From contig CACZMF010000011.1 of NCBI GenBank assembly GCA_902782225.1, forward strand, positions 3,127 to 67,126: 64,000 bases of DNA, given 5' to 3'. Below are positions 3,341 to 64,000 of this stretch, piece by piece (positions within the stretch are counted from its first letter, which is position 1; each line of letters starts with the position of its first letter). The notes beneath the pieces are model-generated. The model did not search any database and was not told the DNA's origin. It worked only from the letters and a program-made list of their open reading frames with translations. The DNA is from an uncultured Bacteroidia bacterium (lineage in GTDB: Bacteria > Bacteroidota > Bacteroidia > Bacteroidales > UBA932). The translations under genes and the position numbers were made by a program.

Positions 3341-3341
3341 T

Positions 3342-5216: not shown

Positions 5217-5233
5217 ACAAACAGAGACATATT

Positions 5234-9112: not shown

Positions 9113-9138
9113 ACAATAACCACAAACACACACAAGCA

Positions 9139-11007: not shown

Positions 11008-11016
11008 ACCGTGAAA

Positions 11017-17681: not shown

Positions 17682-17692
17682 CAGAAAACACA

Positions 17693-19714: not shown

Positions 19715-19729
19715 CATTGTAGAACATAG

Positions 19730-22956: not shown

Positions 22957-22993
22957 ATCATCTTAGCCAATAAGGATATTGTCCCTTTTTTAT

Positions 22994-23001
22994 TATTTTT
23001 G
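22994..23001 (+). promoter_or_regulatory. Bacteroidetes -7 promoter box TAttTTTG
   Basis: Exact TAnnTTTG match 18 nt upstream of ATG 23019. It overlaps the track's GTG start at 23001, which argues against that start. Confidence 0.5.
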
Positions 23002-23018
23002 TGGCAGCTAATGACCAT

Positions 23019-45579: not shown

Positions 45580-45594
45580 CGCCGATATTTTTTG

Positions 45595-45602
45595 CAAATA
45601 TA
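45595..45602 (-). promoter_or_regulatory. -7 promoter box TATATTTG (minus strand)
   Basis: Plus strand reads CAAATATA, 16 nt upstream of ATG 45579. Confidence 0.5.
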
Positions 45603-45605
45603 TAC

Positions 45606-45638
45606 ATTTTGGCAATATTTCCAAAAAATTGCCAAAAT
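45606..45638. promoter_or_regulatory. Perfect 11-bp inverted repeat ATTTTGGCAAT-N11-ATTGCCAAAAT (candidate operator)
   Basis: Sits immediately upstream of the -7 box of the NTase-fusion gene, at the position expected for the -33 region. Confidence 0.5.
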
Positions 45639-45720
45639 ATCGGGCGCGCGGCGAGGCGGAGACACCCGTCTTCGAATTCAGGCATGGCGTCGGCAGCGGC
45701 TGAGGCAAACAAGACTCTTT

Positions 45721-46893: not shown

Positions 46894-46898
46894 AGATA

Positions 46899-46906
46899 CA
46901 AAAATA
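46899..46906 (-). promoter_or_regulatory. -7 promoter box TATTTTTG (minus strand)
   Basis: Plus strand reads CAAAAATA. The G is 6 nt from ATG 46893. Confidence 0.45.
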
Positions 46907-46927
46907 TGCAATTATTGTTAATGTTTG

Positions 46928-48565
46928 CTATGGATTACCGATTTCCATAAGGCGTTTTTCGAACTGGTCGTGGCCGCATACGGCTGAGTTGCGCAGCTTT
47001 ACGCGGTAGTTGTAGATGGTGGAAGGGGATTTTTTCAGGAACTGGGCGATCTTTGCGGATTCGGTGACCCCGAGGCGGATAAGGGCGAATATCCGCAGCT
47101 CGTTGTTGAGGCGCCCTTCGGGAAGATTCTTCCCGATCCGGCTTTCTTCGCGAAGCAGTGCATTCAGCTGGGAGACGAAATCGGGATAGACTCCGAGGAA
47201 GGTGTTGTCGAATTCTTCATAGAGTTTCGACCTTTCCGTGTCTATGAACGTGTCCGATTTGAGCTCCTGGAGCACGTCCGAAATGTCCCTGCTCTTGGAT
47301 ACGGTCCTAAGTCTCGACCGGTAGCGCTCCAGGCCGCTGATGTTCTCGGAGAACATCGACATATAGCGTCCCAGGTATATATCCTTTATATTGTTCGCAT
47401 CCTTGAGCCGGGCGATATAAGTCTGCATGCTGGCGTTGACGGCCTTGATTTCCTGGCTTTGGGCGCTTATGCTGGCGTTTGCCTTGCGCAGCTTGCCCTG
47501 GAACAGGCGCAGGACGAAGAGCAGGATGAGCGAGGCCGCCAGGAGAATGAGGAGCAACTGGGTTGAAACGGTGAGATGAGAAATCTTGCGCCTTTCCTGA
47601 TTGTCCAGTGAGAGCGTGATTGCGGGCATCACAGTGGATATTTCTTCAATGCAGATGCGTGCGTCGGCCTGGGTGGCGCCCTCGAGGGCGTTTGTGATGA
47701 AGACGAATGCTTTGTCCACCTCGCCCTTGTCGTGGAGCAGTCTTGCCGTGTTGGTGAGCGCTCTCGAGGCGCGGACGGGGATCATCAGGTCGTATCTGGC
47801 ACTGACGGCATAGTGCTGCAGCTCGCGGTCGGTGTCGCCTTCAGCACGGTAGGTCTTGGCAAGCCAGTAATGGATGGTGGACATGTCGTCAATGGACAAG
47901 TCGCTGTCCGACAATGCTTTCTCAAGCAGGCTCCGGGCCTGGAGAAAACTGCCTTTGTCTATCTCCGCCGCGGCGTTGACCGTGTAGTACTCTATCGAGC
48001 CCTCTTTCATTGCCGCCCGGTTAAGGGCCTGATAGTACAGCTCCGTCTGCCTGTGGCCCTGTCTGAGGCGGTCATCCCTGGTCGTGAGGGCGAGGCCGTG
48101 GTAGATGGCGTAGAGGGTATGGTTGAGCCGGTCCTCCTGGTCTTTATCCGCATCGGAGATATTGATGTGGCTGACGGTTTCCATGGCGTCGTGGAACATT
48201 CCGGAATTGATGTACCGTCTTGCCAGGTCGAGCTTTGCGTCTATCATCAGCGACTTGTCGCCGGTTGCTGCGGCCAGGCTGTCCTTGGTGTGGGCATACA
48301 GGAAGGCGGAGTCCAGGTCCCATCTAACGTACATATCGAACAGTTCGTCGCACAGCCGGTAGCGCTCCGGAGTGCCTGTCGCCTTCTGCAGGGCGTGATG
48401 CAGTTGTGATATCCGGGAATTGCGTGTGAGCTCGATTTCGCTGCGGTTCTCAAGCGTGTGCTCCAGGTTCTCGACAGCCTCGTCCCACACGTGGCCGGAC
48501 ACGCCTTTGCAGGCCGACAAGCTGCCGATCAGAAGGATATAAACGATTCCGACATTGATTTTCAT
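46928..48565 (-). CDS. DUF6377-type PUL regulator (periplasmic TPR-like sensor, one TM helix, C-terminal HTH)
   Basis: Track ORF trimmed to ATG 48565 (MKINVGIVYILLIGSLSAC). TM helix LLLILLAASLILLFVLRLF. C-terminal NELRIFALIRLGVTESAKIAQFLKKSPSTIYNYRVKLRN. Divergent from the SusC-like gene. Confidence 0.7.
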   Translation of the reverse strand: MKINVGIVYILLIGSLSACKGVSGHVWDEAVENLEHTLENRSEIELTRNSRISQLHHALQKATGTPERYRLCDELFDMYVRWDLDSAFLYAHTKDSLAAATGDKSLMIDAKLDLARRYINSGMFHDAMETVSHINISDADKDQEDRLNHTLYAIYHGLALTTRDDRLRQGHRQTELYYQALNRAAMKEGSIEYYTVNAAAEIDKGSFLQARSLLEKALSDSDLSIDDMSTIHYWLAKTYRAEGDTDRELQHYAVSARYDLMIPVRASRALTNTARLLHDKGEVDKAFVFITNALEGATQADARICIEEISTVMPAITLSLDNQERRKISHLTVSTQLLLILLAASLILLFVLRLFQGKLRKANASISAQSQEIKAVNASMQTYIARLKDANNIKDIYLGRYMSMFSENISGLERYRSRLRTVSKSRDISDVLQELKSDTFIDTERSKLYEEFDNTFLGVYPDFVSQLNALLREESRIGKNLPEGRLNNELRIFALIRLGVTESAKIAQFLKKSPSTIYNYRVKLRNSAVCGHDQFEKRLMEIGNP

Positions 48566-48569
48566 ATCA

Positions 48570-48577
48570 CAAACATA
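48570..48577 (-). promoter_or_regulatory. -7 promoter box TATGTTTG (minus strand)
   Basis: Plus strand reads CAAACATA. The G is 5 nt from ATG 48565. Confidence 0.4.
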
Positions 48578-48718
48578 CGAAAAATATGTGAATAATCTAC
48601 TATTATTTGTTTGAATTTTGCAGGCTAAACTTTTATAAAACAATTATATAGATAAATTATTCATATTTTTTTATCTACTATTTTATCTTTTTTGCATCAT
48701 TATGCGCGCGAGAACAAT

Positions 48719-48726
48719 TATATTTG
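48719..48726 (+). promoter_or_regulatory. -7 promoter box TATATTTG (PUL-3 promoter candidate)
   Basis: Exact match 33 nt upstream of ATG 48759. Confidence 0.5.
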
Positions 48727-48758
48727 CAAAAATCATTATGCTTTTCAATCATCATAAT

Positions 48759-51700
48759 ATGCTTAAGAAAAAACTGTTAACCACACTTGCCACAATGCTT
48801 TGCCTGGCAGTTTCCTTCGGGGCCTTCGCCCAGAAACAGACAGTGCAGGGAGTCGTGACAGATTCCACCGGCCCCGTGATCGGAGCCGTCGTGCAGTCCG
48901 GCGGAGCCAACGCTGTGACTGACCTGGATGGAGCATTCTCCATTTCCGTTCCTTCCGACGCCGTGCTGGAGATTTCAGCCCTCGGCTACAAGACCCTCCG
49001 GGTCCCCGTGGCCGGCCGGACCAGTATCGCCATCACGCTCGAGGAGGACAGCTTCATGCTTGAAGACGCCGTGGCCATCGGTTATGGCACTCAAAAGAAA
49101 ACCAACCTCACAGGCGCAGTCTCCGTTATCAAGTCGGAGGCCCTGCAGGACCGTTCCGCCCTCGACGTGGGACATATGCTGCAGGGTACGGTGCCCGGAC
49201 TCAACGTCACTTCCGGTTCCGGCCGTCCCGGCCAGGCCGCGACGCTGAACATCCGTGGATGGAACTCCATCAACGGCGGCTCCCCGCTGGTCCTTATCGA
49301 CGGCGTGGAAGGTGACATCCAGTACATCAACCCCGTGGACGTGGACAATATTTCCGTCATCAAGGATGCTGCTGCGGCTGCAATCTACGGAGCCAAGGGT
49401 TCCGCCGGTGTGGTGCTTGTGACCACCAAGAGCGGCAGCAAGGAGAAGGACGGACGTGCCAAAGTGACCTACAGCGGCCGTTTCGGCGTCACCGCCCCCA
49501 CCACATCGACGGACTATGAAACCCGCGGCTACGATTCGGTCTATCTGAACAACCTGTTCTGGGCCACCTACAGCCCCGGCACCAAGTACGCCAACTACTC
49601 CGACTACGACATGGAGCAGCTCTGGGCCCGCCGTGGCGACGTGGTGGAGAACCCCGCCCGTCCCTGGGTCGTCATCTCCCAGGAAAACGGCAGGGACGTG
49701 TATAACTATTACGCCAACACCGACTGGTACCATGTCCTCTACAACGACATAAAGCCCACCACCAGCCACTCCGTCTCGATGAGCGGCGGCACCAAGGCCG
49801 TAAGCTATATGGTTTCAGGAGGTTACACCTATGAGCAGGGTATGTTCAAGGACAACCCCGACAACTATAAGCGCGTCAACCTCCGCGCCAAGATTTCCTT
49901 CGACGTGACCGACTGGCTGCGCATCGGCTCCAACACGAGCTACTTCAACAGCTCCTACTTCTATCCCGGCCAGAGCGGCATCAACAACAACTTCGCCAAG
50001 AGTACCGTCCACGCCCTCGCCAGCTACCCCGCCACCAACCCTGACGGCAGCAACGTGTGGGCCACAAAATACAACGGCTACCAGCTCATGGACGGCCTCC
50101 TCATGATCCTTGACGCCGATTTCTTCAACCAGGACAACGTCGACAACATCAGCGAGACCGTGGACTTCACCCTCACTCCCGTGAAGGGCCTTACCGTCAA
50201 GGGCGACTACACCTACACGCTCAAGTACAACCGCTACCTCAACCGCGCCGTGAACGGCACCTATTCCCAGTATCCTATGGAAATGGTGGACAAGTCCGAC
50301 GGCGTGTTCATCGACAAGCTGACCGAGAGCGCCAACACCAACATCTACCAGGCCTACAACCTCTACGCCACCTACCAGAACAGCATTGCCGCCGCCCATA
50401 ACTTCAAGATCATGGCCGGTGTCAACTACGAAACCCGCTGGATCAAGGACCTCGGCCTCGTGGGCTACAACCTCTACTCCACCACCCTCAACGACCAGGA
50501 CCTCGTGGGCGCCGATCCTGCAGATCCCGACGGCAAGAAGCGCATGGAGACCTCCGGCGGCCAGAATGAACTCAAGACCGCAGGCTACTTCACCCGTATC
50601 AACTACGACTACAAGGGCCGCTACCTCCTGGAGCTCAACGCCCGCTACGACGGCTCCTCCCGCTTCCTTCGCGGCAGCCGCTGGGTGTTCTCGCCTTCCG
50701 TCTCCCTCGGATGGAGAGTTTCCGAGGAGCCTTTCTTCGAGCCGCTCAAGACATGGTGGGACAACGCCAAGATCCGCTTCTCCTACGGCCAGCTTGGCAA
50801 CCAGCAGATGAGCAGCTACTATCCTGCCATCCGCACCGTCTCCACCGACGGCAAGTCTTCTTACCTGCTCGGCGGCGCCAATCTGCCCCAGGCCTCCCTG
50901 TCCGCACCGGTGTCTTCCGGCCTCACCTGGGAGCGCTCCATCCAGAGCAACCTCGGCATCGATATGGCGTTCCTCGGCAACCGCCTGGAATTCAGCGCTG
51001 AAGGCTATATCCGCGACACCAAGGACATGCTCACCGCCGGTGAAGCACTGCCCGCAGTCTACGGCGCCTCTTCGCCTAAGGAGAACGTCGCGGACCTCCG
51101 CACCATGGGTTATGAGTTCACGCTGGGCTGGAGGGATTCGTTCAACCTCGGCGCCAAGCCCTTCAACTACGGTGCGAGCGTGGTGTTCAGCGACTATGTG
51201 TCCCACATCACCCGTTTCAACAACCCCGAGAAGCTCTTCGCCAAGACCTACTGGGTGGGCCAGAAATACGGAGACATCTGGGGCTACCATGTGGATGGTC
51301 TCTTCGCCACCGATGAGGAGGCCAAGAGCTACGCCGTGGACCAGTCTAAGGTCAACGACGCCCAAATATTCCCCCAGGGCCTTTTCGCCGGCGACATGAA
51401 GTTCGCCGACCTCGACGGCAACCATGCCATCGACAAGGGTGAGGAGAGAGTAGGCAAGAGCGGCGACTGGCAGGTGATAGGAAACAGTCAGCCCCGCTAC
51501 AACTACGGCGTCAACCTCAACGCTTCCTGGAACGGCTTCGACCTTTCCGTCTTCTTCCAGGGCATAGGTCATATGGACTGGTATCCCGCAGCGGACGCCC
51601 GTTCGTTCTGGTTCCTCTATGCACGTCCCTACCAGACTTTCATCCCGAAGAACTTCCTGAACGACTGCTGGAGCGAGGAGAATCCCAATGCCTACTATCC

Positions 51701-52007
51701 CCGTCCCAGAGGTTACGTGGCAATGAACGCCAACCGTCCCCTGGGTGTGGCCAACGACCGCTACCTCCAGAATATCGGCTACCTGAGGCTCAAGAACCTC
51801 GTGTTCGGCTATACCCTTCCCGAGAAGCTCACCAAGAAAGCATCCATCGCGAAGCTTCGCTTCTACTTCACCGGTGAGAACCTCTTCTATCTGGCTCCCG
51901 GCCTCCACGGCAACTTCGTGGATCCTGAAATGGCAATGACCGGCGGCAACCTCCGCCTGTATCCCTGGCAGAAGAGCTTCATCTTTGGTATCGACATCAC
52001 CCTCTAA
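48759..52007 (+). CDS. SusC/RagA-family TonB-dependent outer-membrane transporter (PUL-3)
   Basis: Track ORF 48702 trimmed to ATG 48759 (MLKKKLLTTLATMLCLAVSFGAFAQ). Motifs VQGVVTDSTGPVIGAVV, AVAIGYGTQKK, ISVIKDAAAAAIYGAKGSAGVVLVTTKSG. C-terminal ..FGIDITL. Close paralog of the SusC-like gene at 5..3340. Confidence 0.95.
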   Translation: MLKKKLLTTLATMLCLAVSFGAFAQKQTVQGVVTDSTGPVIGAVVQSGGANAVTDLDGAFSISVPSDAVLEISALGYKTLRVPVAGRTSIAITLEEDSFMLEDAVAIGYGTQKKTNLTGAVSVIKSEALQDRSALDVGHMLQGTVPGLNVTSGSGRPGQAATLNIRGWNSINGGSPLVLIDGVEGDIQYINPVDVDNISVIKDAAAAAIYGAKGSAGVVLVTTKSGSKEKDGRAKVTYSGRFGVTAPTTSTDYETRGYDSVYLNNLFWATYSPGTKYANYSDYDMEQLWARRGDVVENPARPWVVISQENGRDVYNYYANTDWYHVLYNDIKPTTSHSVSMSGGTKAVSYMVSGGYTYEQGMFKDNPDNYKRVNLRAKISFDVTDWLRIGSNTSYFNSSYFYPGQSGINNNFAKSTVHALASYPATNPDGSNVWATKYNGYQLMDGLLMILDADFFNQDNVDNISETVDFTLTPVKGLTVKGDYTYTLKYNRYLNRAVNGTYSQYPMEMVDKSDGVFIDKLTESANTNIYQAYNLYATYQNSIAAAHNFKIMAGVNYETRWIKDLGLVGYNLYSTTLNDQDLVGADPADPDGKKRMETSGGQNELKTAGYFTRINYDYKGRYLLELNARYDGSSRFLRGSRWVFSPSVSLGWRVSEEPFFEPLKTWWDNAKIRFSYGQLGNQQMSSYYPAIRTVSTDGKSSYLLGGANLPQASLSAPVSSGLTWERSIQSNLGIDMAFLGNRLEFSAEGYIRDTKDMLTAGEALPAVYGASSPKENVADLRTMGYEFTLGWRDSFNLGAKPFNYGASVVFSDYVSHITRFNNPEKLFAKTYWVGQKYGDIWGYHVDGLFATDEEAKSYAVDQSKVNDAQIFPQGLFAGDMKFADLDGNHAIDKGEERVGKSGDWQVIGNSQPRYNYGVNLNASWNGFDLSVFFQGIGHMDWYPAADARSFWFLYARPYQTFIPKNFLNDCWSEENPNAYYPRPRGYVAMNANRPLGVANDRYLQNIGYLRLKNLVFGYTLPEKLTKKASIAKLRFYFTGENLFYLAPGLHGNFVDPEMAMTGGNLRLYPWQKSFIFGIDITL

Positions 52008-53822
52008 ATGAATCCTGCAATGAAAAAGATATTATTCTCCGTTTTGTTGGCACTTGCCGGGTTCGCTTTCACCGGCTGTGACGATCTCCTGGACGCCGTC
52101 CCCAAGGACAGGCTTACCTCGGACACCTTCTTCAAGAGCGAGAGTGAGCTCAAGGCTTTCTCGATCGTGTTCTATGAAGCCTTCCCGGGTTCCGACTTGT
52201 ATGTGGCGAACGACGACCACTACACCCAGAACAACATGTCCACCGAGGGTATGGGCAAGCGCACCATCCCCGCTTCCGGCAGCGGCTGGAGCTGGGGCGC
52301 CCTCCGCAACATCAACACCCTTCTGGAATACCTGCCCAACTGCAAGGATGAAGAGGCCCGCGTCCAGTATGAGGCCCTGGCCCGTTTCTTCCGTGCATAT
52401 TTCTACTTTGCCAAGGTGAAGCGCTTCGGCGACGTGCCCTGGTACGACAAGACTCTCGGCTCCACCGATACCGAACAGCTCTACCGTCCCCGCGACAGCC
52501 GTGAGCTGATAGTGGACAAGATGATGGAAGACCTGGACTTCGCCATCGGGAACCTCCCCACCGCAAAGAGCGCATACGAGGTCACGAAATGGACCGCAAT
52601 GGCCCTCAAGTCCCGTATCCTCCTGTTTGAAGGCACGTTCCGCAAGTATCACGCAGGCGACCCTGCACTCTCCACCCTTCCTGCCGGGGCCAAGCCCTAC
52701 ACCTGGTATCTGGATGAGTGCGCCAAGGTGTCCGGGGAATTCCTCCAGACCAGCGGCTACGGCCTGCATATGGGCAGCGGCAAGGACGGCTATTTCGAGC
52801 TGTTCCACTCCAATGACGCCAGCACCCTCACGGACGAAGTGATCCTCGCACGCAACTACAACAGGGCCTACGGCACCGTCCACAGCGCCGGCAACACCAT
52901 GACCGCCGGTTCCATGGGATGCCCCGCCATGACCAAGAAACTGGTTGCGAGCTACCTCTGCAAGGACGGCTCCCGCTTCACCGACAAGTCCGGCTGGGAG
53001 AAGATGACCTTCGCCGAGGAGACCAAGGACCGCGATCCCCGCTTGGCAATGTCAATCCGCACTCCCGGCTACAAGCGTATGGGAGAGAGCACACCCACGG
53101 CTCCCGACCTGAAGGTGTCCTTCACGGGCTACCATCCGGACAAGTACGTCACCACCCTCGACCAGGACCAGTACAACAACTGTGACGTCGACCTCATCGT
53201 GTTCCGCGCAGCCGAGGTCTATCTCAACTATGCGGAAGCCCTTGCCGAGGCAGGCAAGATCACCCAGGCCGACCTGGACGCCACTATCAACAAGCTGCGC
53301 GACCGCGCCGGCATGCCCGGCCTCGACCTTGCGGCCGCCAACGGCAACCCCGACCCGTTCCTGACCAATCCCGCATACGGCGGATACACCTCTTCCGTGC
53401 TCCAGTCCGACCCCAACAAGGGTGTCATCCTCGAGATACGCCGCGAGCGCGCCATAGAGCTGTGCCAGGAAGGCCACCGCTACTACGACCTTATGCGCTG
53501 GAAGGAAGGCAAGGTCTTCGAGGCTCCTTTCTACGGCATGTACATTCCCGGCGAGGGTGGATTTGACCTCGACGGCGACGGCAAGCTCGATTTCGAGGTG
53601 TTCTCGGCGTCCGCTTCCACCAACGCCCCCGTGGCCAAGAAACTCGGCACCGACGTGTTCCTTTCCGGCGGCACCAGCGGCCTGATACTCCTCCACGGCG
53701 ACATCTCCCGCACCTGGAACGAAAACAGGGATTACCTGTTCCCCATACCCACCGACGACCGCAACCTCACCGGCGGAGCTCTCACCCAGAACCCCGGCTG
53801 GGACGACGGTTTAACATTCTAA
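52008..53822 (+). CDS. SusD/RagB-family outer-membrane lipoprotein (PUL-3)
   Basis: Lipobox ..LAGFAFTGC. Motifs RFFRAYFYFAKVKRFGDVPWYD, VFRAAEVYLNYAEALAEAG, LEIRRERAIELCQEGHRYYDLMRW, TQNPGW. Alternative start 52020. Confidence 0.9.
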   Translation: MNPAMKKILFSVLLALAGFAFTGCDDLLDAVPKDRLTSDTFFKSESELKAFSIVFYEAFPGSDLYVANDDHYTQNNMSTEGMGKRTIPASGSGWSWGALRNINTLLEYLPNCKDEEARVQYEALARFFRAYFYFAKVKRFGDVPWYDKTLGSTDTEQLYRPRDSRELIVDKMMEDLDFAIGNLPTAKSAYEVTKWTAMALKSRILLFEGTFRKYHAGDPALSTLPAGAKPYTWYLDECAKVSGEFLQTSGYGLHMGSGKDGYFELFHSNDASTLTDEVILARNYNRAYGTVHSAGNTMTAGSMGCPAMTKKLVASYLCKDGSRFTDKSGWEKMTFAEETKDRDPRLAMSIRTPGYKRMGESTPTAPDLKVSFTGYHPDKYVTTLDQDQYNNCDVDLIVFRAAEVYLNYAEALAEAGKITQADLDATINKLRDRAGMPGLDLAAANGNPDPFLTNPAYGGYTSSVLQSDPNKGVILEIRRERAIELCQEGHRYYDLMRWKEGKVFEAPFYGMYIPGEGGFDLDGDGKLDFEVFSASASTNAPVAKKLGTDVFLSGGTSGLILLHGDISRTWNENRDYLFPIPTDDRNLTGGALTQNPGWDDGLTF

Positions 53823-53834
53823 TCGCCCGGCACC

Positions 53835-55598: not shown

Positions 55599-55609
55599 GC
55601 ACAAGCCGT

Positions 55610-57574
55610 ATGAAAACAAAAGTTTATTCCGTTCTTGCACTTGGACTGGTACTGTCCTTGGCTTGCGCATGCAATAAAGAGACCCGCGACCTTCCCGCTC
55701 CCGGGCAGAAGATAAGCGTCAGCGCCTTCCTTCCCGAAGACACCAAAGTCGCCGCCGGCGACAAGGAAGGAGGCATCACCTGGTCGTGGGAAGAGGGCGA
55801 CGCGATAACCCTCGTCGGCAAGACTTCCTCCACGCTTTCCATCGACCCGGGATTCACCGCGAAGAAGGCCACCTTCTCCGGAAAACCCGTGTCGGGCGAC
55901 AGCTTCTCCATCATTTATCCCGCCATGGCCTCAGTGTCGGCCATGGATGCCATCACTTTCGACACCCAGGTGCAGGCGAGCACCGACTCGAAGGCTCACC
56001 TTCAGTACTTTGCCCTGCTCCAAGACATCAAGTCCTACAGCAGCTTCGAGTTCAGCCCTTCGTGGGCGGCGTCCAACGGCGCCTCGTTCAAGCAGGGCGG
56101 CGTGCTGAAAATCGTGGCGTCGCTTCCTGCCGAGACCACAATGGTGACCAAGCTCGCGATCAAGGCATCGGCCCCCGTGTTCCATGCCGACAACGGTGAT
56201 ACCATGACCGACGCCCTCGCCGTCACCTTCGAGGAATCCGCCCTTCCGGAGAGCAAGACCCTGGTCGCCTGGTTCACCACTTCCTGGCACGACACCGCGA
56301 TTCCTGCCGGCACCACCATCCAGTTCACTGCCGCCGCAGGAGACTTCACCTGGCTCAGCGACCTCAGCATTCCTGCCGAAAAGGTGATTAAGTCCGGCTG
56401 CGTCAACGTCATCGAGCTGCCTGCCTCCGTGTGGTACAACACCGGCCGCTACAGCGGCGGCGCAGGCACTGCGGCGAGCCCCTGGATCATCACCAAGCCC
56501 GAGCAGATGAACTTCATCAAGGAAGACCTGGTGGCGGGAGACATCCGTTACTTCAAACTGGGCGCCGACATCGATATGTCCGGCATTACCGGCTGGGAGC
56601 CTCTCAACTACGCCAGCCCCTATGACAAGCAGATCGACTTCGACGGCGCAGACCACACCATCTCCGGCTTCACCTGCGATTATCCCAGCTATCCGAGCTT
56701 CTTCGGCGTGCTCTATGGAGCCTGCCGCAACGTCAATTTCGTGAACGCCGTGATCAACTGCTCCAACAACACCGGCTGCGGTATCATCGGCGGCTACGGC
56801 GGCACCGGCGACAAGCACGCCGACGTGTTCCGTGTCCACGTGCAGGGCGAAGTCAACTTCACCGGCAACAAGACCGGTATCGGCGGTATGTTCGGCCAGC
56901 TTGCCAACGCAAGCCTGAATGCCTGCTCGGCAGATGTCAACGTCACTTCCGGCAAGAACTACGTCGGCGGCCTTTGCGGCTACATCGGAGCCAGCACCGT
57001 CTCCGTCGAGAACTGCTGGACCAGCGGCTCCGTGGCGGGCAACCAGAGGGCCGGCGGCATCACCGGCGGCGTGATCAAGGAAGGCTCCGTGATACGCAAC
57101 TGCTACTCCCTCTCCGCAGTCAGCGCCAACTTCTGCATCGCCGGTATCGCAGGCCACTGCAACCTCGACCAGAAGAGCGGCAATCCCGACGTGAGCACTC
57201 CCGGCAACGTGATCGAGAAGTGCATCGCCTGGAACGAGTCCATCAAGGCGAACTCCGTGACCGAGGGCGACAAGAGCCACTACAGCGGCGGCGCCATCGC
57301 AGGCTACACCTCGATGAAAAACACCCTTGCCGACTGTATGCGCAAGGCCGACCTCGTGTTCGTGGAGTACTCCGACCTCTTCGGCCTCTACGACCAGGAG
57401 AACGCCTCCGCCGCGACGCCTCTGGTGGTCAACGCAGTCGAAGGTGCCACCTATAATTATCCATATCACGGCAAAACTGCAGCTGCCGGCGCCACCCTCA
57501 GCCAGGTCGCACAGGCCCTCGGCTGGCCGGCCGACATCTGGGACTTCAGCGGCAGCGTTCCTGTCCTTAAATAA
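55610..57574 (+). CDS. Lipoprotein: fimbrillin-like N-module + GLUG-repeat module
   Basis: Lipobox ..LSLACAC. Module head SPWIITKPEQMNFI..ADIDMSGITGWEPLN..IDFDGADHTISGF. Turns: IGGMFG, VGGLCGY, AGGITGG, IAGIAGH. Paralog of 53835, 58635 and 61709. Confidence 0.75.
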   Translation: MKTKVYSVLALGLVLSLACACNKETRDLPAPGQKISVSAFLPEDTKVAAGDKEGGITWSWEEGDAITLVGKTSSTLSIDPGFTAKKATFSGKPVSGDSFSIIYPAMASVSAMDAITFDTQVQASTDSKAHLQYFALLQDIKSYSSFEFSPSWAASNGASFKQGGVLKIVASLPAETTMVTKLAIKASAPVFHADNGDTMTDALAVTFEESALPESKTLVAWFTTSWHDTAIPAGTTIQFTAAAGDFTWLSDLSIPAEKVIKSGCVNVIELPASVWYNTGRYSGGAGTAASPWIITKPEQMNFIKEDLVAGDIRYFKLGADIDMSGITGWEPLNYASPYDKQIDFDGADHTISGFTCDYPSYPSFFGVLYGACRNVNFVNAVINCSNNTGCGIIGGYGGTGDKHADVFRVHVQGEVNFTGNKTGIGGMFGQLANASLNACSADVNVTSGKNYVGGLCGYIGASTVSVENCWTSGSVAGNQRAGGITGGVIKEGSVIRNCYSLSAVSANFCIAGIAGHCNLDQKSGNPDVSTPGNVIEKCIAWNESIKANSVTEGDKSHYSGGAIAGYTSMKNTLADCMRKADLVFVEYSDLFGLYDQENASAATPLVVNAVEGATYNYPYHGKTAAAGATLSQVAQALGWPADIWDFSGSVPVLK

Positions 57575-57583
57575 TTATTGTAT

Positions 57584-58630
57584 ATGAAGAAAGGATTGAC
57601 ATATTCATGGGCGATAATCCTCTGCCTGCTGGCTTTTTCCTGCAAGAAGCCGTCGGGCCCGGACCTGCCTCCGCCCACCCCGTCCGGCCAAAGCGACAAC
57701 CAGGGCGGACAGAACAACAACCAGGGCACTGATCCCGACACCCCCCAGGAGTCTCACCCATGGGATGCCAATCGTGGTAAATACGTAGTTCCCACAGGCG
57801 ACGGGTGGTCCAGGGCCACCGTCGCCGCGGGGATTACATATTACTCTTTCTCGGGCACGGAATCAGTCTCCAAGGCCAAGCAGCGCATCTATGTGGCCGA
57901 CATCGACATGTCTTCCGACAAGTATCAGCTCGGCCTGGTGTATCATTCCGACCGCCGCACCACTTCGCAGGTGTTCACGGAGGAGAAAGCCATCATCTCC
58001 ATGAACGGCGGCTACGAGCAGCCATCCATCGTGATCAAGATCGGCGGAATCTACAAGTCCGCCATGCCCAACAACTTCATAGGCGACACGGACGTCCCCA
58101 ACTGGAAAAACGAAGGCGCGCTGTATTTCAGCGACGGCACCGACCCCCGCATCCGTTTCGACGGCAAGGGCAAGAGCGTCACCGCACAGCGCAGCTTCTA
58201 CTATTCCAGCAAGGAGCCCAACATCCTGACCAGCGCACCCATGCTGATCAATGATTTCGAGCCGGTAGGGGAGACCTTCGTCAGCTACACCGGCAACCTC
58301 AACTCCCTCAATTACGAAGATCCCAGGCGCCATCAGGGCGTCCGCCATCCCCGCACAGCCATAGCCACCACCGAGAACAACCATCTGCTGATGGTCGTCA
58401 TAGACGGCAGGCGCTCTGGCGTGAGCGAGGGAATGACCGCCAGGGAAGTCACCGGCTTCCTTGTCCAAAACTTCAACCCCCAGTATGCCCTGAATCTCGA
58501 CGGCGGAGGCTCTTCGACCCTCTGTGTCGCAGGCCTGGGCGACAAGACCACCCACGTGGTCAACAAGCCCACGGATTCCGAGGGAGAGCGTTCCGTGACA
58601 ACCCATCTGTTTATTATTCCGAAGAAATAG
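57584..58630 (+). CDS. Phosphodiester glycosidase family lipoprotein (NAGPA-like), copy 2
   Basis: MKKGLTYSWAIILCLLAFSC. Motifs HPRTAIATTENNHLLMVVIDGRR and ALNLDGGGSSTLCV. Paralog of the C-terminal domain of the next gene. Confidence 0.8.
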   Translation: MKKGLTYSWAIILCLLAFSCKKPSGPDLPPPTPSGQSDNQGGQNNNQGTDPDTPQESHPWDANRGKYVVPTGDGWSRATVAAGITYYSFSGTESVSKAKQRIYVADIDMSSDKYQLGLVYHSDRRTTSQVFTEEKAIISMNGGYEQPSIVIKIGGIYKSAMPNNFIGDTDVPNWKNEGALYFSDGTDPRIRFDGKGKSVTAQRSFYYSSKEPNILTSAPMLINDFEPVGETFVSYTGNLNSLNYEDPRRHQGVRHPRTAIATTENNHLLMVVIDGRRSGVSEGMTAREVTGFLVQNFNPQYALNLDGGGSSTLCVAGLGDKTTHVVNKPTDSEGERSVTTHLFIIPKK

Positions 58631-58634
58631 AGTC

Positions 58635-61559
58635 ATGACAAAGATTTTCAATAGTTTACTCCTTCCGCTGGCGGCCACGGCCCTCCTTGCGGCCTGCGTG
58701 AAAGAGGCGCCTGCCCCGGAGCGGCAGCGCGAAATGGTCACCGTCACCGCTTCCGTCCCCGAAGCCACCAAGGTCGCCTTCGAGGATGCCGCCGACAACG
58801 GCCTGTCCCTTTCCTGGGAAGACGGAGACTGCCTCCGCATCATTTCCGGCAGCGAGTCCGGACGGTACGACATCCTCGACGATTTCGAAGAGCACAAGGC
58901 CAGGTTCCGCGGCCCTGAAGTGACGGGAGAAAAGTACAACATCCTCTATCCGGGCACTTTCGAGAGCGTGGAAGAGGCGGCGGAATTCGACTTTGCCGGC
59001 CAGGTGCAGAACGGCAACGACAACAAGGACCACCTGCGCTACATCACCCTCCTGGAAGGTGTGGACACCAAGGAAGACATCTGTTTCTCCGATGAGTGGG
59101 CCGCCGCCCACGGCGGAATATGCAGGCAGAGCGGCGTGGTGAAGTTCATCCTCACCCTGCCCTCCGGACTGACCCAGCCCCGCAAGGTGCGGCTGTCCGG
59201 ACTGGACAAGGACATCGTCCTTGCCATCAAGAACGTCAACCTCAGCTCCAACCATGTGCTCACCGCTTATGCCGTGACTCCCTGGAACGATATCCCCATC
59301 TCTTCCGGCACCGACCTCACCGTCACCGTCTCGGATGCGCAGGGAGCAACCTGGAGCCGCAATATCACCGTCAACAAGGAGACAGCCATCGGCGCGGGCA
59401 AGCAGAGCGTGTTCCGCCTGACGCAGGGCTTCGAGGAGACCCTCTTCGCCGGAGGCTCCGGCACCCAGAACGACCCGTACCTCATCTCCGGAGCCAGGCA
59501 TCTCTACAATATGCACGCAGACGGTATCCTGGAGCAGGGCAAGAAGACCTATTTCCTCATGACTGAAGACGTCGACATGTCCGTCATCTCCGAGCCCTGG
59601 GTACCCCTCAACAACGTGAATCCCTACGGCTGCGAAGTCGATTTCGACGGCAGCGGCCACACCATCGACAACTTCACCTGCTCCGACACCGACCACTGCC
59701 CCGGTTTCTTCACCGTGCTGTTCGGCGACGTCCACAACGTCCGCTTCACCAATGCCGACGTTAAGAAGACCAACGACAACACCGGACATCCCTGCGGTAT
59801 CCTCGGTGGTTACGGCGGATACGCCAGCTGCCCGTCAAGGGTCTGGGACGTCCACGTCCAGGGTACGGTCACTTCCACGGCGGTCAACGGCGTGGGCGGA
59901 ATGTTCGGGCGCATCAACGCCATCGACATCGAATCCTGCTCGGCAGACGTCAATGTCACGAGCAAGGGAGGCGGCAGGTCCGGCCTGGTGGGCGGTATCT
60001 TCGGTTACGACACCGGCGCAGTGACCGTGCGTAACTGCTGGACTTCAGGCATCATCAGAGGATCCGACAAGGTGGGCGGCATCGGCGGTGCCTTCATCAA
60101 GGCCGAATCCTCCATGTATAACTGCTACTCGATTGCCGAAGTCAACGGTTCCTTCCAGTATGCCGGAATCCTGGGCCATGCCAACCTCGACCAGAAGGCC
60201 AACAACGACACCAACACCCCCGACAACCACATCGAAAGGTGCATCGCCTGGAACTCCGCCGTCCAGACCATCACGACCGACTCCGGCGAGCACTACAGCA
60301 GCGGCGCCATTATAGGCTACACCGCCCAGAAGAATTATCTTTCCGACTGCTTCCGCAGGAGCGACCTCAGTTTCACCGAGTGCCCCGGGAATATAGACCG
60401 CGGCTACGGCATTACGGACCAGGAAAACGCCAGCCCTTCGAAGCCTCTCGTGCGCCAGTCCTCCAACACCTACGATTTTGCCTACCACGGCAAGGCCGCC
60501 GCAGCGGGCAGGACACTCTCCCAGGTTGCTCAGAGCCTCGGCTGGAATGCCACCATCTGGGATTTCAGCGGCCCTGTTCCCCAGCTCACCGGTGAGGCGA
60601 TATTCGTGGACAACGCCCAGGAAAGCGGCGCCGCAAATGCTCCCACAGGCAGCAATCCCAGGCCCGGAGAGGGCGAGATACGTCCTTCCGCCGGAGGCGG
60701 CTGGACCGTGAAAAGCATAGTGCCGGGAGTCACCTATTATGCCTTCGACGGCGTGGACAGCTATTCGGGATATGTGCAGCAGGTGTTCGTGATCGACTTC
60801 GATCTCAGCAGCACCCAGTACAAGCTCCAGTTCGTGTATGAGAATCCTTCCCTGGTCAATTCCGAAGTGTTCTCCAAGTACAACGCAATCGCTTCCATCA
60901 ACTGCGGTTATGAAATGTCTTCCATCGTCTACAAGTACGACGGCATTGGCAAGGCCTACATTCCCAACAACACCATCACCGACACCGGTGTGGCCAACTG
61001 GAAGAACGAAGGCGCCTTCTACTTCGACGGCAACCGCACCGCGAAGATCAGTGCCGACGGTTATGGCCTCTCCATCAGCGAGCAGCGCAAGTACTACATG
61101 TACAATACCTCCGAGTGGCCCAATATCGTGTCCAGCGCCCCCGTGCTAATCAACGACTGGAGCCCCATAGGCGAGACATTCACCCAGCGTTACAACATCG
61201 GCGGCCCGTCCGAGTCTCCGAGGGTCCACCAGAACAGCACGCACCCCCGTACTGCAGTCGCACTCACAGAGGGCAACCACCTGCTGATGGTGGCCGTGGA
61301 CGGACGCTATGACGCTTCCGGCTTCAGTATCGGCATGAGCGCCAAGCAGCTCACCAGGTTCCTCGTGACCCACTTCAATCCCCGCTGGGCCCTCAACCTC
61401 GACGGCGGCGGTTCCACCACCATGTGCGTCCAGGGAGAAGGTGACGCTACGACTCACGTCGTCAACTATCCTTGTGACAACGTCAAGAGCAAGGGCCTGC
61501 CTCACGACCATGCCGGCGAGCGCGCCCGTGATACCCACCTTGTCATCGTAGCCAGATAA
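58635..61559 (+). CDS. Tripartite lipoprotein: fimbrillin-like N-module + GLUG-repeat module + C-terminal phosphodiester glycosidase (NAGPA-like) domain
   Basis: Lipobox ..TALLAAC. Module head DPYLISGARHLYNM..EDVDMSVISEPWVPLN..VDFDGSGHTIDNF. Turns: VGGMFG, VGGIFGY, VGGIGGA. The C-terminal 297 aa (about 60666-61556) carry HPRTAVALTEGNHLLMVAVDGR and ALNLDGGGSTTMCV. Confidence 0.8.
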   Translation: MTKIFNSLLLPLAATALLAACVKEAPAPERQREMVTVTASVPEATKVAFEDAADNGLSLSWEDGDCLRIISGSESGRYDILDDFEEHKARFRGPEVTGEKYNILYPGTFESVEEAAEFDFAGQVQNGNDNKDHLRYITLLEGVDTKEDICFSDEWAAAHGGICRQSGVVKFILTLPSGLTQPRKVRLSGLDKDIVLAIKNVNLSSNHVLTAYAVTPWNDIPISSGTDLTVTVSDAQGATWSRNITVNKETAIGAGKQSVFRLTQGFEETLFAGGSGTQNDPYLISGARHLYNMHADGILEQGKKTYFLMTEDVDMSVISEPWVPLNNVNPYGCEVDFDGSGHTIDNFTCSDTDHCPGFFTVLFGDVHNVRFTNADVKKTNDNTGHPCGILGGYGGYASCPSRVWDVHVQGTVTSTAVNGVGGMFGRINAIDIESCSADVNVTSKGGGRSGLVGGIFGYDTGAVTVRNCWTSGIIRGSDKVGGIGGAFIKAESSMYNCYSIAEVNGSFQYAGILGHANLDQKANNDTNTPDNHIERCIAWNSAVQTITTDSGEHYSSGAIIGYTAQKNYLSDCFRRSDLSFTECPGNIDRGYGITDQENASPSKPLVRQSSNTYDFAYHGKAAAAGRTLSQVAQSLGWNATIWDFSGPVPQLTGEAIFVDNAQESGAANAPTGSNPRPGEGEIRPSAGGGWTVKSIVPGVTYYAFDGVDSYSGYVQQVFVIDFDLSSTQYKLQFVYENPSLVNSEVFSKYNAIASINCGYEMSSIVYKYDGIGKAYIPNNTITDTGVANWKNEGAFYFDGNRTAKISADGYGLSISEQRKYYMYNTSEWPNIVSSAPVLINDWSPIGETFTQRYNIGGPSESPRVHQNSTHPRTAVALTEGNHLLMVAVDGRYDASGFSIGMSAKQLTRFLVTHFNPRWALNLDGGGSTTMCVQGEGDATTHVVNYPCDNVKSKGLPHDHAGERARDTHLVIVAR

Positions 61560-61570
61560 TAATCAACACC

Positions 61571-61705
61571 ATGAATAAGAAATACCAGACTCCCAGTATC
61601 AGCATCGACAGTGAGCTGTACCTCGCAGGCCTTCTGGCCGCTTCTTCCGACGGATCGCTGGAGGACATGTCCGGCGAAGTCATATTCGATGATTTAACTG
61701 CCTGA
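61571..61705 (+). CDS. Unannotated 44-codon ORF (MNKKYQTPSISIDSELYLAGLLAASSDGSLEDMSGEVIFDDLTA)
   Basis: Found by hand translation; it is below the track's length cut-off. It fills the only sizeable gap (149 nt) in an otherwise tightly packed gene row. No signal peptide. Coding status unproven. Confidence 0.3.
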   Translation: MNKKYQTPSISIDSELYLAGLLAASSDGSLEDMSGEVIFDDLTA

Positions 61706-61708
61706 TTT

Positions 61709-64000
61709 ATGAATAGGTTTGCAGCGATTATCACTTTCCTGGCCGCGCTGTCCGTCCTCGTGTCGCCTTCCTGCAAGAAGGCCGTGGACACCCCGCAGGC
61801 CGGGCCCCAAGTGACCATACGTGCCTGTGTGCCCGATGACGCCACGAAAGTGGCCCTCACCCCCAGCGGCGACGGCCTCCACCTCGCCTGGGAAGCGGGT
61901 GATGCCCTCCGTGTCATCTCCGGCTCTCAGTCGGAGCAGTTTGCCATCAAGGATGGCTTCACCGACCATGAGGCATCGTTCACCGGAACTGCCGTGAGCG
62001 GCACTTCCTTCGATATCATCTATCCCGGGACCTTCGCTTCCGTGGCTGAAGCCGAAGCTTCCGATTTCAGCTATCAGGAGCAGGACGGCAACGGCAGCAC
62101 CGCGCATCTGCGCTATGCGGCCCTGCTGAGCGGTGTCGATGACTACACCGATATCGCCTTCACGCAGGAATGGGCTTCGGCCCACGGCGGCGCCATCAAG
62201 CGTGCGGGTGCCATCAAGATGGACCTCACGCTCCCCGCCGGCGTGACCACGGTCACCGGAGTGGACGTGGACCTTGCCGGCCGTGCGCTCGCCCTCGGGC
62301 TGAAGAACGTGGACGTGTCCCAGAGCGCCCAGGTGCTCACCGCCTACCTTATGACCCCGTGGGAGGATATGGAACTTGCCGCCGGGTCCAAGGTGGAAAT
62401 AAAGGTGACCGCCTCCGATGACGCCTGCTACGGCATCAGCTTCAGCCTGGCTGAGGCCAGGACCCTCAAGGCCGGGCACGTCAGCGTGTTCAAGGTACCC
62501 AACAACATCGAGGAGTACCGGTTCGCCGGCGGCAGCGGCACCGAGGCCGATCCCTGGCTCATAGCCAACGCCCGCCAGCTCAGGAACATGATGACCCTCT
62601 ACGCCGATGCCGAGGCTCCCGCCGACAAGAACTCCTTCAAGAAGTGGTTCCGCCTCACTAAAGACATCGACGCCTCCTCCATCAGCTCCTGGACCCCGCT
62701 CAACAACAGCGGCAGCTTCTACAAGGCAATCGATTTCGACGGCGACAGCCACACCATTTCCGGGCTTAAGCCCACGGGCACCTATGCCAGTTTCGTGGGA
62801 GTGCTGTACGGAACTATTCGTAACGTCACCTTCGACGGCGTCACGATCAACGTGGGCAACGTCAAGACCGGCGTAGTGGCCGGCTTCCTCGGCACGGACG
62901 GCCTTCCCGGCTACTGCGAGAACGTGGTGGTCAAGAACTCTTCCGTGACTTCCACCAGCTATGCCGGAGGCTTTGCCGGGCACATACGCAACATCGGCAC
63001 CGTCACGGGATGCTCCGTCGTCAACACCACCGTGAGCACGATCGGCTACGCCGGTGGTTTTGCCGCCTATGCGGACCTTGGCTCCGGCGACAAGTATGAA
63101 GTCCCCTGCATCTTCACCGACTGCCACGTGTCCGACGTCACCGTGAACCAGAATTACACTTCTGCAGGAGAAAGGTACACCGGCGGCTTCATCGGCTGCG
63201 CGGCCCAGACGCAGACTTTCAAGGACTGCACCGTCAAGGCCACGGTCAACGCCACCAAGGCCGCGATCCAGGACGTCGGCGGCTTCATCGGCCGCGACTC
63301 CTATGCCGGCGCCAATTTCAATGGATGCCAGGTGCTTGACGGCACCGTGGTCAATGCGATGGGCGCCCACGTCGGCGGCTTCATCGGCTATTCCGAGGTG
63401 GCGGCGTCGTATATCGACTGCTCCTCTGCCGCGGCAGTCAACAATTCTGCCGAATACACCGGCGGCTTTGCCGGTTTTGCCTGCGGCGCTTCTTCCTACA
63501 CGCGCTGCAGCGCCAGCGGCAATGTGTCCGGCAACCTGTATGTCGGCGGTTTCGCCGGCCAGGCCGAGAATGCCAGCTTCAACGACTGCAGCTACAGCCA
63601 GGGCACCGTCTCCGGCAGCGGCACGACCAAGTACACCCTCACGGCAGGCTTCTGCGGCTATGCCACCAGCGGGCTCTCGTTCAACGACTGCTCCGTGAGC
63701 GGAGCCACCGTTTCTGCCGAAAGGGGCCAGCGCATCGGCGGCTTCGTGGGCCAGCTGGGCTCGTCCTACACCAGTTTGAACAACATCTCGCTTGCCGGGT
63801 GCAACGTCAGCGACACCCAGGTGACCGGCGGCACTAACACCGGCGGCTTCGTGGGCGTGCAGTACGACAATATCAGCCGCTGTTATGTTTCCGGCGGCAG
63901 CGTCACTGCCAAGAATGCCCATTGCGGCGGTTTCGCCGGATTCGCGCAGCAGGGAAGCGCCACCAACTGCTATACGACGGCTGAGGTCATCGGCGGAAGC
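61709..64000 (+). CDS. Lipoprotein: fimbrillin-like N-module + long GLUG-repeat region (5' partial; runs off the window end)
   Basis: Not in the ORF track, because there is no stop inside the window. Hand translation from ATG 61709: MNRFAAIITFLAALSVLVSPSC.. Module head DPWLIANARQLRNM..KDIDASSISSWTPLN..IDFDGDSHTISGL. At least 10 turns: YAGGFAGH, YTGGFIGC, VGGFIGR, VGGFIGY, YTGGFAGF, YVGGFAGQ, IGGFVGQ, TGGFVGV, CGGFAGF. Clear paralog of 55610 and 58635. Confidence 0.85.
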   Translation, partial: MNRFAAIITFLAALSVLVSPSCKKAVDTPQAGPQVTIRACVPDDATKVALTPSGDGLHLAWEAGDALRVISGSQSEQFAIKDGFTDHEASFTGTAVSGTSFDIIYPGTFASVAEAEASDFSYQEQDGNGSTAHLRYAALLSGVDDYTDIAFTQEWASAHGGAIKRAGAIKMDLTLPAGVTTVTGVDVDLAGRALALGLKNVDVSQSAQVLTAYLMTPWEDMELAAGSKVEIKVTASDDACYGISFSLAEARTLKAGHVSVFKVPNNIEEYRFAGGSGTEADPWLIANARQLRNMMTLYADAEAPADKNSFKKWFRLTKDIDASSISSWTPLNNSGSFYKAIDFDGDSHTISGLKPTGTYASFVGVLYGTIRNVTFDGVTINVGNVKTGVVAGFLGTDGLPGYCENVVVKNSSVTSTSYAGGFAGHIRNIGTVTGCSVVNTTVSTIGYAGGFAAYADLGSGDKYEVPCIFTDCHVSDVTVNQNYTSAGERYTGGFIGCAAQTQTFKDCTVKATVNATKAAIQDVGGFIGRDSYAGANFNGCQVLDGTVVNAMGAHVGGFIGYSEVAASYIDCSSAAAVNNSAEYTGGFAGFACGASSYTRCSASGNVSGNLYVGGFAGQAENASFNDCSYSQGTVSGSGTTKYTLTAGFCGYATSGLSFNDCSVSGATVSAERGQRIGGFVGQLGSSYTSLNNISLAGCNVSDTQVTGGTNTGGFVGVQYDNISRCYVSGGSVTAKNAHCGGFAGFAQQGSATNCYTTAEVIGGS

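Follow-up and report, generated by a model that had tools for sequence, protein, structure and literature searches.

A SusC/SusD locus without classical carbohydrate-active enzymes in an uncultured Bacteroidales bacterium, and a candidate role for its NAGPA-family and GLUG-type lipoproteins in the use of phosphodiester-linked glycopolymers

The locus in this report lies in a 64,000-nt stretch of DNA (here called the window) from contig CACZMF010000011.1 of an uncultured rumen Bacteroidales bacterium (assembly GCA_902782225.1). The region under study, 46928-64000, was extended to 45.7-64.0 kb, which we treat as one locus. It is a Sus-like polysaccharide utilization locus (PUL): an adjacent susC/susD pair and a PUL-type regulator are present, and the classical carbohydrate-active enzymes (CAZymes), which are usual in such loci and not required, are absent from the window. 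In their place stand lipoproteins with GLUG-type right-handed beta-helices and phosphodiester glycosidases of the NAGPA family. From this gene content and its counterparts in related genomes, we think that the locus probably serves the use of a glycopolymer that is joined or decorated through sugar-1-phosphate diesters and is also O-acylated.

Two proteins of the locus, g57584 and g58635 (genes are named by their start coordinates), contain the glycosidase domain that a sequence-only reading of the same DNA had called NAGPA-type, and their membership in the NAGPA family is well supported by hidden Markov model (HMM), profile, fold, and motif comparisons. The two domains are 45% identical over 335 residues by blastp, and both carry the HPRT, DGR, and DGGGS motifs. 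The family profile matches the bacterial structure 3OHG (1.7e-13) and vertebrate NAGPA structures (2e-11 to 2e-7). An AlphaFold2 (AF2) model of g57584, with a pLDDT of 86.3, was matched by Foldseek to 3OHG (1.1e-14, TMt 0.70) and to guinea-pig NAGPA, 6PKU (1.5e-12, TMt 0.70). For human NAGPA, a 2026 cryo-EM study described the invariant DGGGS motif as critical for substrate recognition and catalysis, put D286 at the bottom of the sugar pocket, and assigned phosphate binding to R316 and T260; the enzyme breaks a sugar-1-phosphate diester at its C1-O bond, so that a phosphomonoester remains (PMC13474241). The catalytic residues, which the earlier reading had marked as a point to check, are conserved in the bacterial proteins. 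D306GGGS310 and R336 are invariant in family alignments A2 and A4, both window domains included; exactly 30 residues separate the motif Asp from this downstream Arg, which is the spacing of human D286 and R316, and the position matching human T260 falls in the invariant DGR(R) motif. Another NAGPA-family lipoprotein gene, the third in the window, stands alone at 24945-25943 on the minus strand, just after a separate SusC/SusD locus (PUL-2, described below) and beside a thioredoxin-like gene; it matches PF09992 at 1.7e-33 (116.7 bits) and also has HPRT, DGR, and DGGGS.

Related loci, sought in other Bacteroidales by scanning one genome per GTDB species via the GLUG module, were found in the form of 68 distinct species-level loci. 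Nearly all are from uncultured rumen Bacteroidales metagenome-assembled genomes (MAGs), with a few from human-gut MAGs, e.g., "Bacteroides sp. CAG:709." Open reading frames (ORFs) of these loci were labelled with phmmer, using the domains of the window and those found in relatives as queries, with E-values that are relative to a small database of ORFs. The core order is SusC, SusD, DUF1735-GLUG, N-domain-GLUG, NAGPA, with the DUF1735-GLUG architecture directly after SusD in 51 loci. NAGPA is present in 65 of the 68 loci, SusC in 60, and SusD in 61. Among the other genes are SGNH esterases (36/68), histidine acid phosphatases (His_Phos_2; 27 + 8 of 68 loci), EEP phosphoesterases (21/68), and an organophosphate:Pi antiporter that matches TIGR00881, GlpT, UhpC, and PgtP at E-values of 1e-52 to 1e-66 (10/68, a count limited by the 10-kb flank). 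A SusR-type regulator gene sits at the same position as in the window in 19 loci and an ECF sigma/FecR pair in others (FecR in 22 and ECF sigma in 17 of 68). Motifs are well kept: DGGGS in 96 of 100 NAGPA ORFs, RHGxR and HD in all 35 histidine phosphatases, GDS/GxND/DxxH in 37 of 38 SGNH ORFs, and SDH in 25 of 25 EEP ORFs.

Seventeen proteins of the related loci fuse a histidine acid phosphatase (with RHGSR and GHD motifs) to NAGPA, the phosphatase coming first in nine and NAGPA first in eight; examples are found in L004 (17633-19771), L016, L019, and L022. We regard these independent fusions in both orders as the strongest argument for the mechanism proposed below, because NAGPA leaves a phosphomonoester and a phosphatase would be its natural fusion partner. 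GLUG modules are likewise fused to NAGPA (13 proteins) or to SGNH esterases (14 proteins), and L073 and L075 have the reverse order, NAGPA-GLUG. The smallest version of the locus, in human-gut MAGs, consists only of ECF/FecR, SusC, SusD, DUF1735-GLUG, and NAGPA. Median identity to the window proteins is 77% for SusC, 69% for SusD, 49% for NAGPA, and 43% for the GLUG proteins. The unusually high conservation of SusC and SusD suggests that the related loci share one ligand class.

That no glycoside hydrolase (GH), lyase, or carbohydrate esterase (CE) signature is recognizable anywhere in the locus was stated from the letters alone, and a Pfam HMM scan of the ORFs within the window, in which no GH, polysaccharide lyase (PL), or CE domain was found, agrees. 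For esterases, the statement fails just beyond position 64000, where the last gene, g61709, continues into an SGNH esterase. This was seen on a public rumen metagenome contig, L007 (ENA STEW19-1 scaffold_446), which agrees with the window at every base of their 15,366-nt overlap. Read from L007, full-length g61709 has 1086 residues and a C-terminal SGNH/GDSL esterase domain, which lies outside the window, with the blocks GDSITW, GGTNDL, and DYLHP and a recorded Pfam Lipase_GDSL match; an 83% identical ortholog matches PF13472 at 1.2e-23. Among the relatives, classical GHs turned up only sporadically when 68 unlabelled co-directional ORFs were scanned in batch against Pfam (GH3 twice and GH20, GH78, and GH43 once each); the L016 locus has a GH78 rhamnosidase and a further GH20-F5/8C-SGNH fusion. 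No glycosyltransferase or Wzx/Wzy genes were found linked to the related loci among the labelled and scanned ORFs.

The four GLUG lipoproteins (g53835, g55610, g58635, and g61709), said in the sequence-only reading to share one module, are indeed paralogs, with blastp E-values of 1e-16 to 1e-142: g53835 and g55610 are 49% identical over 403 residues (7e-118), g55610 and g58635 are 41% identical over 650 residues (1e-142), and g58635 and g61709 are 40% identical over 449 residues (1e-87). The attribution of GLUG turns to all four holds by Pfam for g61709 only. The other three miss the Pfam GLUG model at E <= 0.01 and are "GLUG-type" through homology to g61709 (blastp 1e-16 to 1e-87) and to PDB 3N6Z, which g55610 matches at 3e-30 by sequence and 2e-53 by profile. 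The AF2 model of g55610 (pLDDT 89.9) has two parts, an N-domain of ~250 residues and then a right-handed beta-helix, the kind of fold that the sequence-only reading had proposed to look for in the module. With Foldseek, this model matches 3N6Z (3e-18, TMt 0.75) and the N-terminal beta-helix of IgA1 proteases (7.5e-5 to 3.9e-4). The N-domain has a fold like that of type V pilins, matching BF1858 (2.2e-4), BACOVA_04078 (4e-4), and Mfa3 (1.3e-2) with TMt of 0.32-0.46; it is more likely to serve as a stalk, because the large beta-helix comes after it.

The module gave no significant match to any characterized beta-helix polysaccharide-cleaving family by Pfam or Foldseek. The best such Foldseek matches were to a Klebsiella phage P560 depolymerase (E = 0.042), pectate lyases (0.10-0.17), and an alginate lyase (0.15). 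With all of these at E >= 0.04 and no Pfam match, placement of the module in a GH or PL beta-helix family is rejected at current evidence. A search of BFVD with the module found only uncharacterized viral GLUG-like proteins. A GLUG profile search of 1.84 billion representative proteins gave 81,808 clusters at 50% identity with E <= 1e-3 and 10,213 with E <= 1e-30, and the module occurs in giant proteins of 2,000-7,800 residues, in up to 27 copies. The GLUG head-plus-helix is a very large and essentially uncharacterized superfamily of surface modules. Polar residues outside the Gly-rich turns are conserved in the family (DxD, DFDG.HT, CIAWN, DQEN, and PYHGK). Of the two roles offered earlier for the GLUG modules, binding or depolymerization, we favor binding or scaffolding, which is unproven, because the module is spread through giant proteins, is accompanied by stalk domains, and in some paralogs carries an enzyme domain at its far end.

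These observations can be assembled into a working scheme. Surface lipoproteins with a DUF1735 or type-V-pilin-like stalk and a GLUG beta-helix would capture an anionic polymer, and the NAGPA-type enzymes, one free and one tethered at the end of a GLUG stalk, would hydrolyze the C1-O bond of the sugar-1-phosphate. If sugar-1-phosphate links form the backbone, and if the enzymes can act in an endo mode, this step alone would depolymerize the substrate to sugar- or oligosaccharide-phosphomonoesters; NAGPA would then be the only depolymerizing step needed, which would explain why GHs and PLs are absent and how the minimal four-gene version can be viable. The SGNH esterase carried on the third GLUG stalk may strip O-acyl groups, its presence suggesting that the polymer is O-acylated. 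SusC and SusD, by family, would import the fragments. In this genome, the uncovered phosphomonoesters may be dephosphorylated by an adjacent purple-acid-phosphatase-like (PAP-like) metallophosphoesterase, probably the phosphomonoesterase of this version of the locus; in relatives, synteny and the fusions point to the histidine or EEP phosphatases for dephosphorylation, or to the GlpT/UhpC-type antiporter for uptake of sugar- and glycerol-phosphates. The SusR-type regulator, by analogy with SusR, would sense a periplasmic breakdown product.

An O-acylated sugar-1-phosphate polymer is the substrate that fits best. The sugar-1-phosphate-diester target suggested in the sequence-only reading gains partial support from the near-constant presence of NAGPA, the added histidine phosphatases, EEP proteins, and antiporters, and the conserved motifs. 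It is possible, and we put it forward tentatively, that these loci constitute an undescribed class of Bacteroidota PUL in which NAGPA on GLUG stalks is the only depolymerizing chemistry, converting poly(glycosyl-1-phosphate) polymers to sugar-phosphates that are then dephosphorylated or imported by UhpC/GlpT-type transporters, with GLUG as a new kind of module that binds phosphorylated anionic glycans or catalyzes their breakdown, and with a dedicated small partner protein that one GLUG subclass requires. The candidates that fit best are poly(glycosyl-1-phosphate) polymers of other microbes, of the teichoic-acid or capsule type, but such a specific substrate is a narrower claim that we hold to be less likely than not. 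The sporadic GH20, GH78, and GH3 genes are a weak hint that the repeats contain N-acetylhexosamine or rhamnose in some species, which fits Gram-positive wall polysaccharides. A classical poly(glycerol-phosphate) teichoic acid is less likely, because no GDPD glycerophosphodiesterase was found among the scanned unlabelled co-directional ORFs.

Several points weigh against the proposed scheme. BACOVA_00430, the one bacterial homolog assayed, reportedly had only ~1% of the human activity on GlcNAc-P-Man in the hands of Das et al. in 2013. Only 2 of the 68 relatives have a PAP-like gene linked to the locus, and the histidine phosphatase or antiporter of this genome, if any, lies beyond the available sequence. 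Alignment at the human residues that read the N-acetyl group, E226 and T227, is ambiguous, with a possible two-residue shift to the near-invariant E245. Vertebrate NAGPA, moreover, is exo-acting, with a pocket for terminal GlcNAc (PMC13474241).

In one alternative with the same substrate class, the GLUG beta-helices, at least those of classes A and B (Table 1), are themselves endo-acting depolymerases of a new hydrolase, lyase, or phosphodiesterase family, and NAGPA, in the periplasm or on the cell surface, only trims sugar-1-phosphate caps from chain ends. An endo-enzyme at the surface is normally needed by a PUL, and many polysaccharide-cleaving families have the right-handed beta-helix fold; the GLUG proteins hold the positions just after SusD, diverge about as much as the NAGPA enzyme does, have strongly conserved polar residues outside the Gly-rich turns, and show weak fold similarity to a phage depolymerase, pectate lyases, and alginate lyase. 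However, significant structural similarity is confined to 3N6Z and the non-catalytic beta-helix of IgA1 proteases, no Pfam GH or PL model is matched, the number of clusters and the many-copy giant proteins form a pattern typical of adhesive or scaffold modules, and several paralogs bear a bona fide enzyme, NAGPA or SGNH, at the end of the module, as a carrier would. We judge this alternative unlikely, if the most serious of those considered. A peptidase role for the same proteins is hardly credible: 3N6Z is named a "putative immunoglobulin A1 protease" and there is similarity to the N-terminal region of M26 IgA1 proteases, but this covers only their non-catalytic beta-helix, and an M26 identity is rejected at the sequence level, with neither HEXXH nor HXXEH and no peptidase Pfam domain in the GLUG proteins.

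The rumen is rich in fungi and ciliates, which counts for a target among phosphorylated eukaryotic glycoprotein glycans, deglycosylated in place: fungal or yeast phosphomannan (Man-1-P-6-Man), protozoan phosphoglycans, or GlcNAc-P-Man N-glycans. NAGPA has a single proven substrate, GlcNAc-1-P-6-Man on N-glycans (PMC13474241), proteins of N-glycan PULs, BT3986 and BT3987 among them, typically have DUF1735 stalks (PMC11216935), and EEP-fold phosphatases act on Man-6-P in a B. thetaiotaomicron mannan PUL (PMC4978465). Yet neither the window nor the scanned unlabelled co-directional ORFs of the relatives contain GH18/GH85 endo-glycosidases or GH92/GH38/GH76/GH125/GH99 mannosidases, which are the hallmark of N-glycan and mannan PULs (PMC4978465) and without which the mannose-rich remainder of such a glycan would be unusable by the locus; we consider this target improbable. 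Less probable again is that the locus has nothing to do with feeding and is a surface-adhesin or fimbria-like cluster whose NAGPA and SGNH enzymes remodel the cell's own capsule or exopolysaccharide. The N-domains do have a type-V-pilin or "putative cell adhesion protein" fold, giant adhesin-like proteins are a common setting of GLUG modules, and several NAGPA homologs are named "exopolysaccharide biosynthesis protein" by JGI. Against this, ~60 of 68 loci keep the genes in a tight, conserved operon arrangement with SusC/SusD and with regulators of the Sus or ECF/anti-sigma type, catabolic phosphatases and an organophosphate importer are recurrently linked, and the labelled and scanned ORFs include no linked glycosyltransferase or Wzx/Wzy genes.

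The genes of the locus are listed in Table 1. The divergent DUF6377-type regulator and the SusC/SusD pair, as read from the sequence alone, were confirmed by their family models at the expected positions; the regulator, which is transcribed away from susC, scores 397 bits against the NCBIfam SusR_regulator model, under its equivalog cut-off of 480 bits. The plus-strand operon is compact, with intergenic gaps of 0, 12, 11, 9, and 4 nt, susC and susD abutting without a gap. The PAP-like gene lies 16 nt downstream of the regulator gene on the same strand, and a homolog adjoins SusC in L008, an 85% identical locus. It is a probable member of the locus; its membership is not certain because of the rarity of the linkage in relatives. 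Directly beside it, at 44809-45708 on the minus strand, a gene for a protein with DUF6577 and a nucleotidyltransferase domain (NTP_transf_2/Polbeta) is probably unrelated to the locus.

Table 1. Genes of the SusC/SusD locus in window coordinates. Cut-offs are 25 bits for PF09992, 20.5 bits for PF07581, and 368.25 bits for TIGR04056.
Feature	Coordinates	Strand	Evidence and remarks
PAP-like calcineurin-type metallophosphoesterase with signal peptide	45721..46911	-	PF00149 Metallophos 6.1e-17; PF16656 Pur_ac_phosph_N 4.6e-06
SusR-type regulator: TPR sensor region, one transmembrane segment, DNA-binding C-terminal domain	46928..48568	-	PF19904 DUF6377/SusR_C 1.6e-58
SusC-like TonB-dependent transporter	48702..52007	+	TIGR04056 833 bits; SusC signature TIGR04057; Plug, CarbopepD_reg_2, and barrel domains
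SusD-like lipoprotein	52008..53822	+	PF07980 1.3e-49; PF14322 9.3e-15
Lipoprotein, DUF1735 (BT_3987-like N) stalk and GLUG-type beta-helix (class A)	53835..55598	+	PF08522 1.2e-15
Lipoprotein, type-V-pilin-like N-domain and GLUG-type beta-helix (class B)	55610..57574	+	No Pfam match; PDB 3N6Z similarity
Stand-alone NAGPA-family phosphodiester glycosidase lipoprotein (g57584)	57584..58630	+	PF09992 7.8e-26, 91.7 bits
Lipoprotein g58635: pilin-like N-domain, GLUG beta-helix, C-terminal NAGPA	58635..61559	+	PF09992 1.7e-19, 71.1 bits, residues 750-949 (~nt 60882-61481)
Conserved 44-residue ORF, MNKKYQTPSISIDSELYLAGLLAASSDGSLEDMSGEVIFDDLTA, without signal peptide	61571..61705	+	3 nt upstream of g61709; called as gene on public contigs
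Lipoprotein, pilin-like N-domain and long GLUG beta-helix, cut at window end	61709..64000	+	PF07581 Glug 8.3e-18, 63.9 bits

What looks like a 149-nt gap before g61709 holds the small conserved ORF of Table 1. An HMM of its family found 57 copies in 36 loci, 47 of which lie 0-24 nt upstream of a gene with the pilin-like N-domain and GLUG; among the related loci, the small ORFs never precede class A genes or NAGPA-fused genes. The encoded proteins have ~40-60 residues and no signal peptide (e.g., L007 16463-16678 and 21931-22074 and L004 13780-13941), with a motif of roughly M(K/N)..Y..P...V.L....C(I/L)A.S...L.D(M/F)..N.I(Y/F)(D/E)E(D/E)F. Compared with L008, the window copy differs at 8, 1, and 23 sites in the three codon positions, with 20 synonymous and 8 non-synonymous codon changes; by this bias of substitutions to the third codon position, we take the ORF to be truly coding. 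An NCBIfam search with eight of the peptides gave no match. It is speculation that the small protein is a dedicated folding or assembly partner of the GLUG subclass with the pilin-like N-domain.

Extension past 64000, suggested earlier as a way to see the end of the locus, showed not only the rest of g61709 but also further GLUG genes on L007, in the form of more small-ORF/GLUG gene pairs. These pairs are interrupted at L007 19883-21582 (window coordinates 68517-70216) by an LPD3-domain gene and a gene for PDDEXK_2, a transposase-like nuclease, which suggests a recent rearrangement of the locus tail.

The closest known systems each share part of this arrangement. Vertebrate NAGPA and BACOVA_00430 (3OHG, DUF2233) have the same fold, Pfam family, DGGGS motif, and downstream Arg spacing; here, by contrast, the enzyme is a Bacteroidales lipoprotein encoded within a SusC/SusD operon, with one copy standing free and the other attached to the tip of a pilin-like/GLUG stalk, and relatives often add a histidine acid phosphatase. 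In the mannan PULs of B. thetaiotaomicron, the glycosidase BT3774 acts on Man-1-P and takes off the sugar, after which the EEP-fold BT3783 splits off the phosphate left exposed (Cuskin et al. 2015, PMC4978465). Those loci resemble the present one in being Sus-like and handling sugar-1-phosphate in two steps, with EEP proteins found in a part of the relatives here. They differ in being rich in GH38, GH92, GH76, GH99, and GH125, with the phosphodiester a minor decoration (PMC4978465), whereas the present locus has no classical GH, has a NAGPA-family uncapping enzyme, and is dominated by phospho-processing genes.

The closest solved relative of the GLUG module, BACOVA_03286 (3N6Z), is a single GLUG protein of 381 residues without a stalk, encoded upstream of SusC in a locus without NAGPA. 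On Bacteroides ovatus-type contigs (L076 865-9072 and L077 456-10418), proteins of this type occur, as here, in a SusC/SusD locus that has a phosphoesterase and no CAZymes: ECF sigma, FecR, the GLUG protein, SusC with an STN domain, SusD, and a 516-residue Exo_endo_phos/EEP protein. The B. ovatus locus thus makes a second type of PUL in which GLUG beta-helices go together with a phosphoesterase. The IgA1 proteases of S. pneumoniae and Gemella (M26; 6XJA, 7JGJ, and 7UVK) share the GLUG-type right-handed beta-helix at profile E-values of 6e-8 to 2e-5, along with the Foldseek matches already given; the window proteins differ in having no metalloprotease domain or HEXXH and a lipoprotein anchor in place of LPXTG. 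The starch Sus of B. thetaiotaomicron has the same layout of a divergent SusR-type regulator, SusC/SusD, and then surface lipoproteins; here, however, the regulator is under the SusR equivalog cut-off, the downstream genes are not amylases or SusE/F, and many orthologous loci use ECF sigma/anti-sigma regulation.

Two other SusC/SusD loci without GH or PL occur in the window. PUL-1 (5-12678) encodes BACON proteins, a PQQ-like beta-propeller, and a calcineurin-like phosphoesterase (MetallophosN/C, 11011-12678), and PUL-2 (13099-23954) encodes an fn3/PQQ propeller, an AP_endonuc_2 TIM barrel (19730-21283), DUF6528, and an EEP protein (23001-23954). PULs that lack CAZymes and are geared to phosphoesters seem to be plentiful in this genome. 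The G+C content is ~51-55% in window positions 1-24000, which hold PUL-1 and PUL-2, and ~57-64% over most of 24001-64000, with a dip to 51% at 44-46 kb; this contrast could reflect different gene origins. An Rfam scan of the whole window gave no match.

PULs, NAGPA, and GLUG are each already known; in literature searches, we found no publication on a NAGPA-based PUL or on this NAGPA/GLUG/PUL combination. A domain census lists 32 DUF1735+GLUG proteins without assigned function (PMC11216935), and the only other related items are remarks on NAGPA fusions in Bacillota.

CAZyme-free loci are usually ignored or marked "substrate unknown," because PULs are defined and catalogued largely by their CAZymes. 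The present locus has been kept in at least 68 species-level genomes of rumen and gut Bacteroidales, and its gene content has a coherent logic: uncover the phosphodiester, remove or import the phosphate, and remove acyl groups. If the proposed role is correct, the bacterial NAGPA/DUF2233 family and the GLUG beta-helix lipoproteins would each gain a first physiological role, and the locus would identify recyclers of phosphodiester-linked wall and capsule polymers, a large pool of phosphorus and carbon in gut ecosystems. Such loci would also be a source of enzymes that cut sugar-1-phosphate polymers, including several bacterial capsules used as vaccine antigens, and the related GLUG/EEP PUL in the cultivable Bacteroides ovatus offers an experimental entry to GLUG function.

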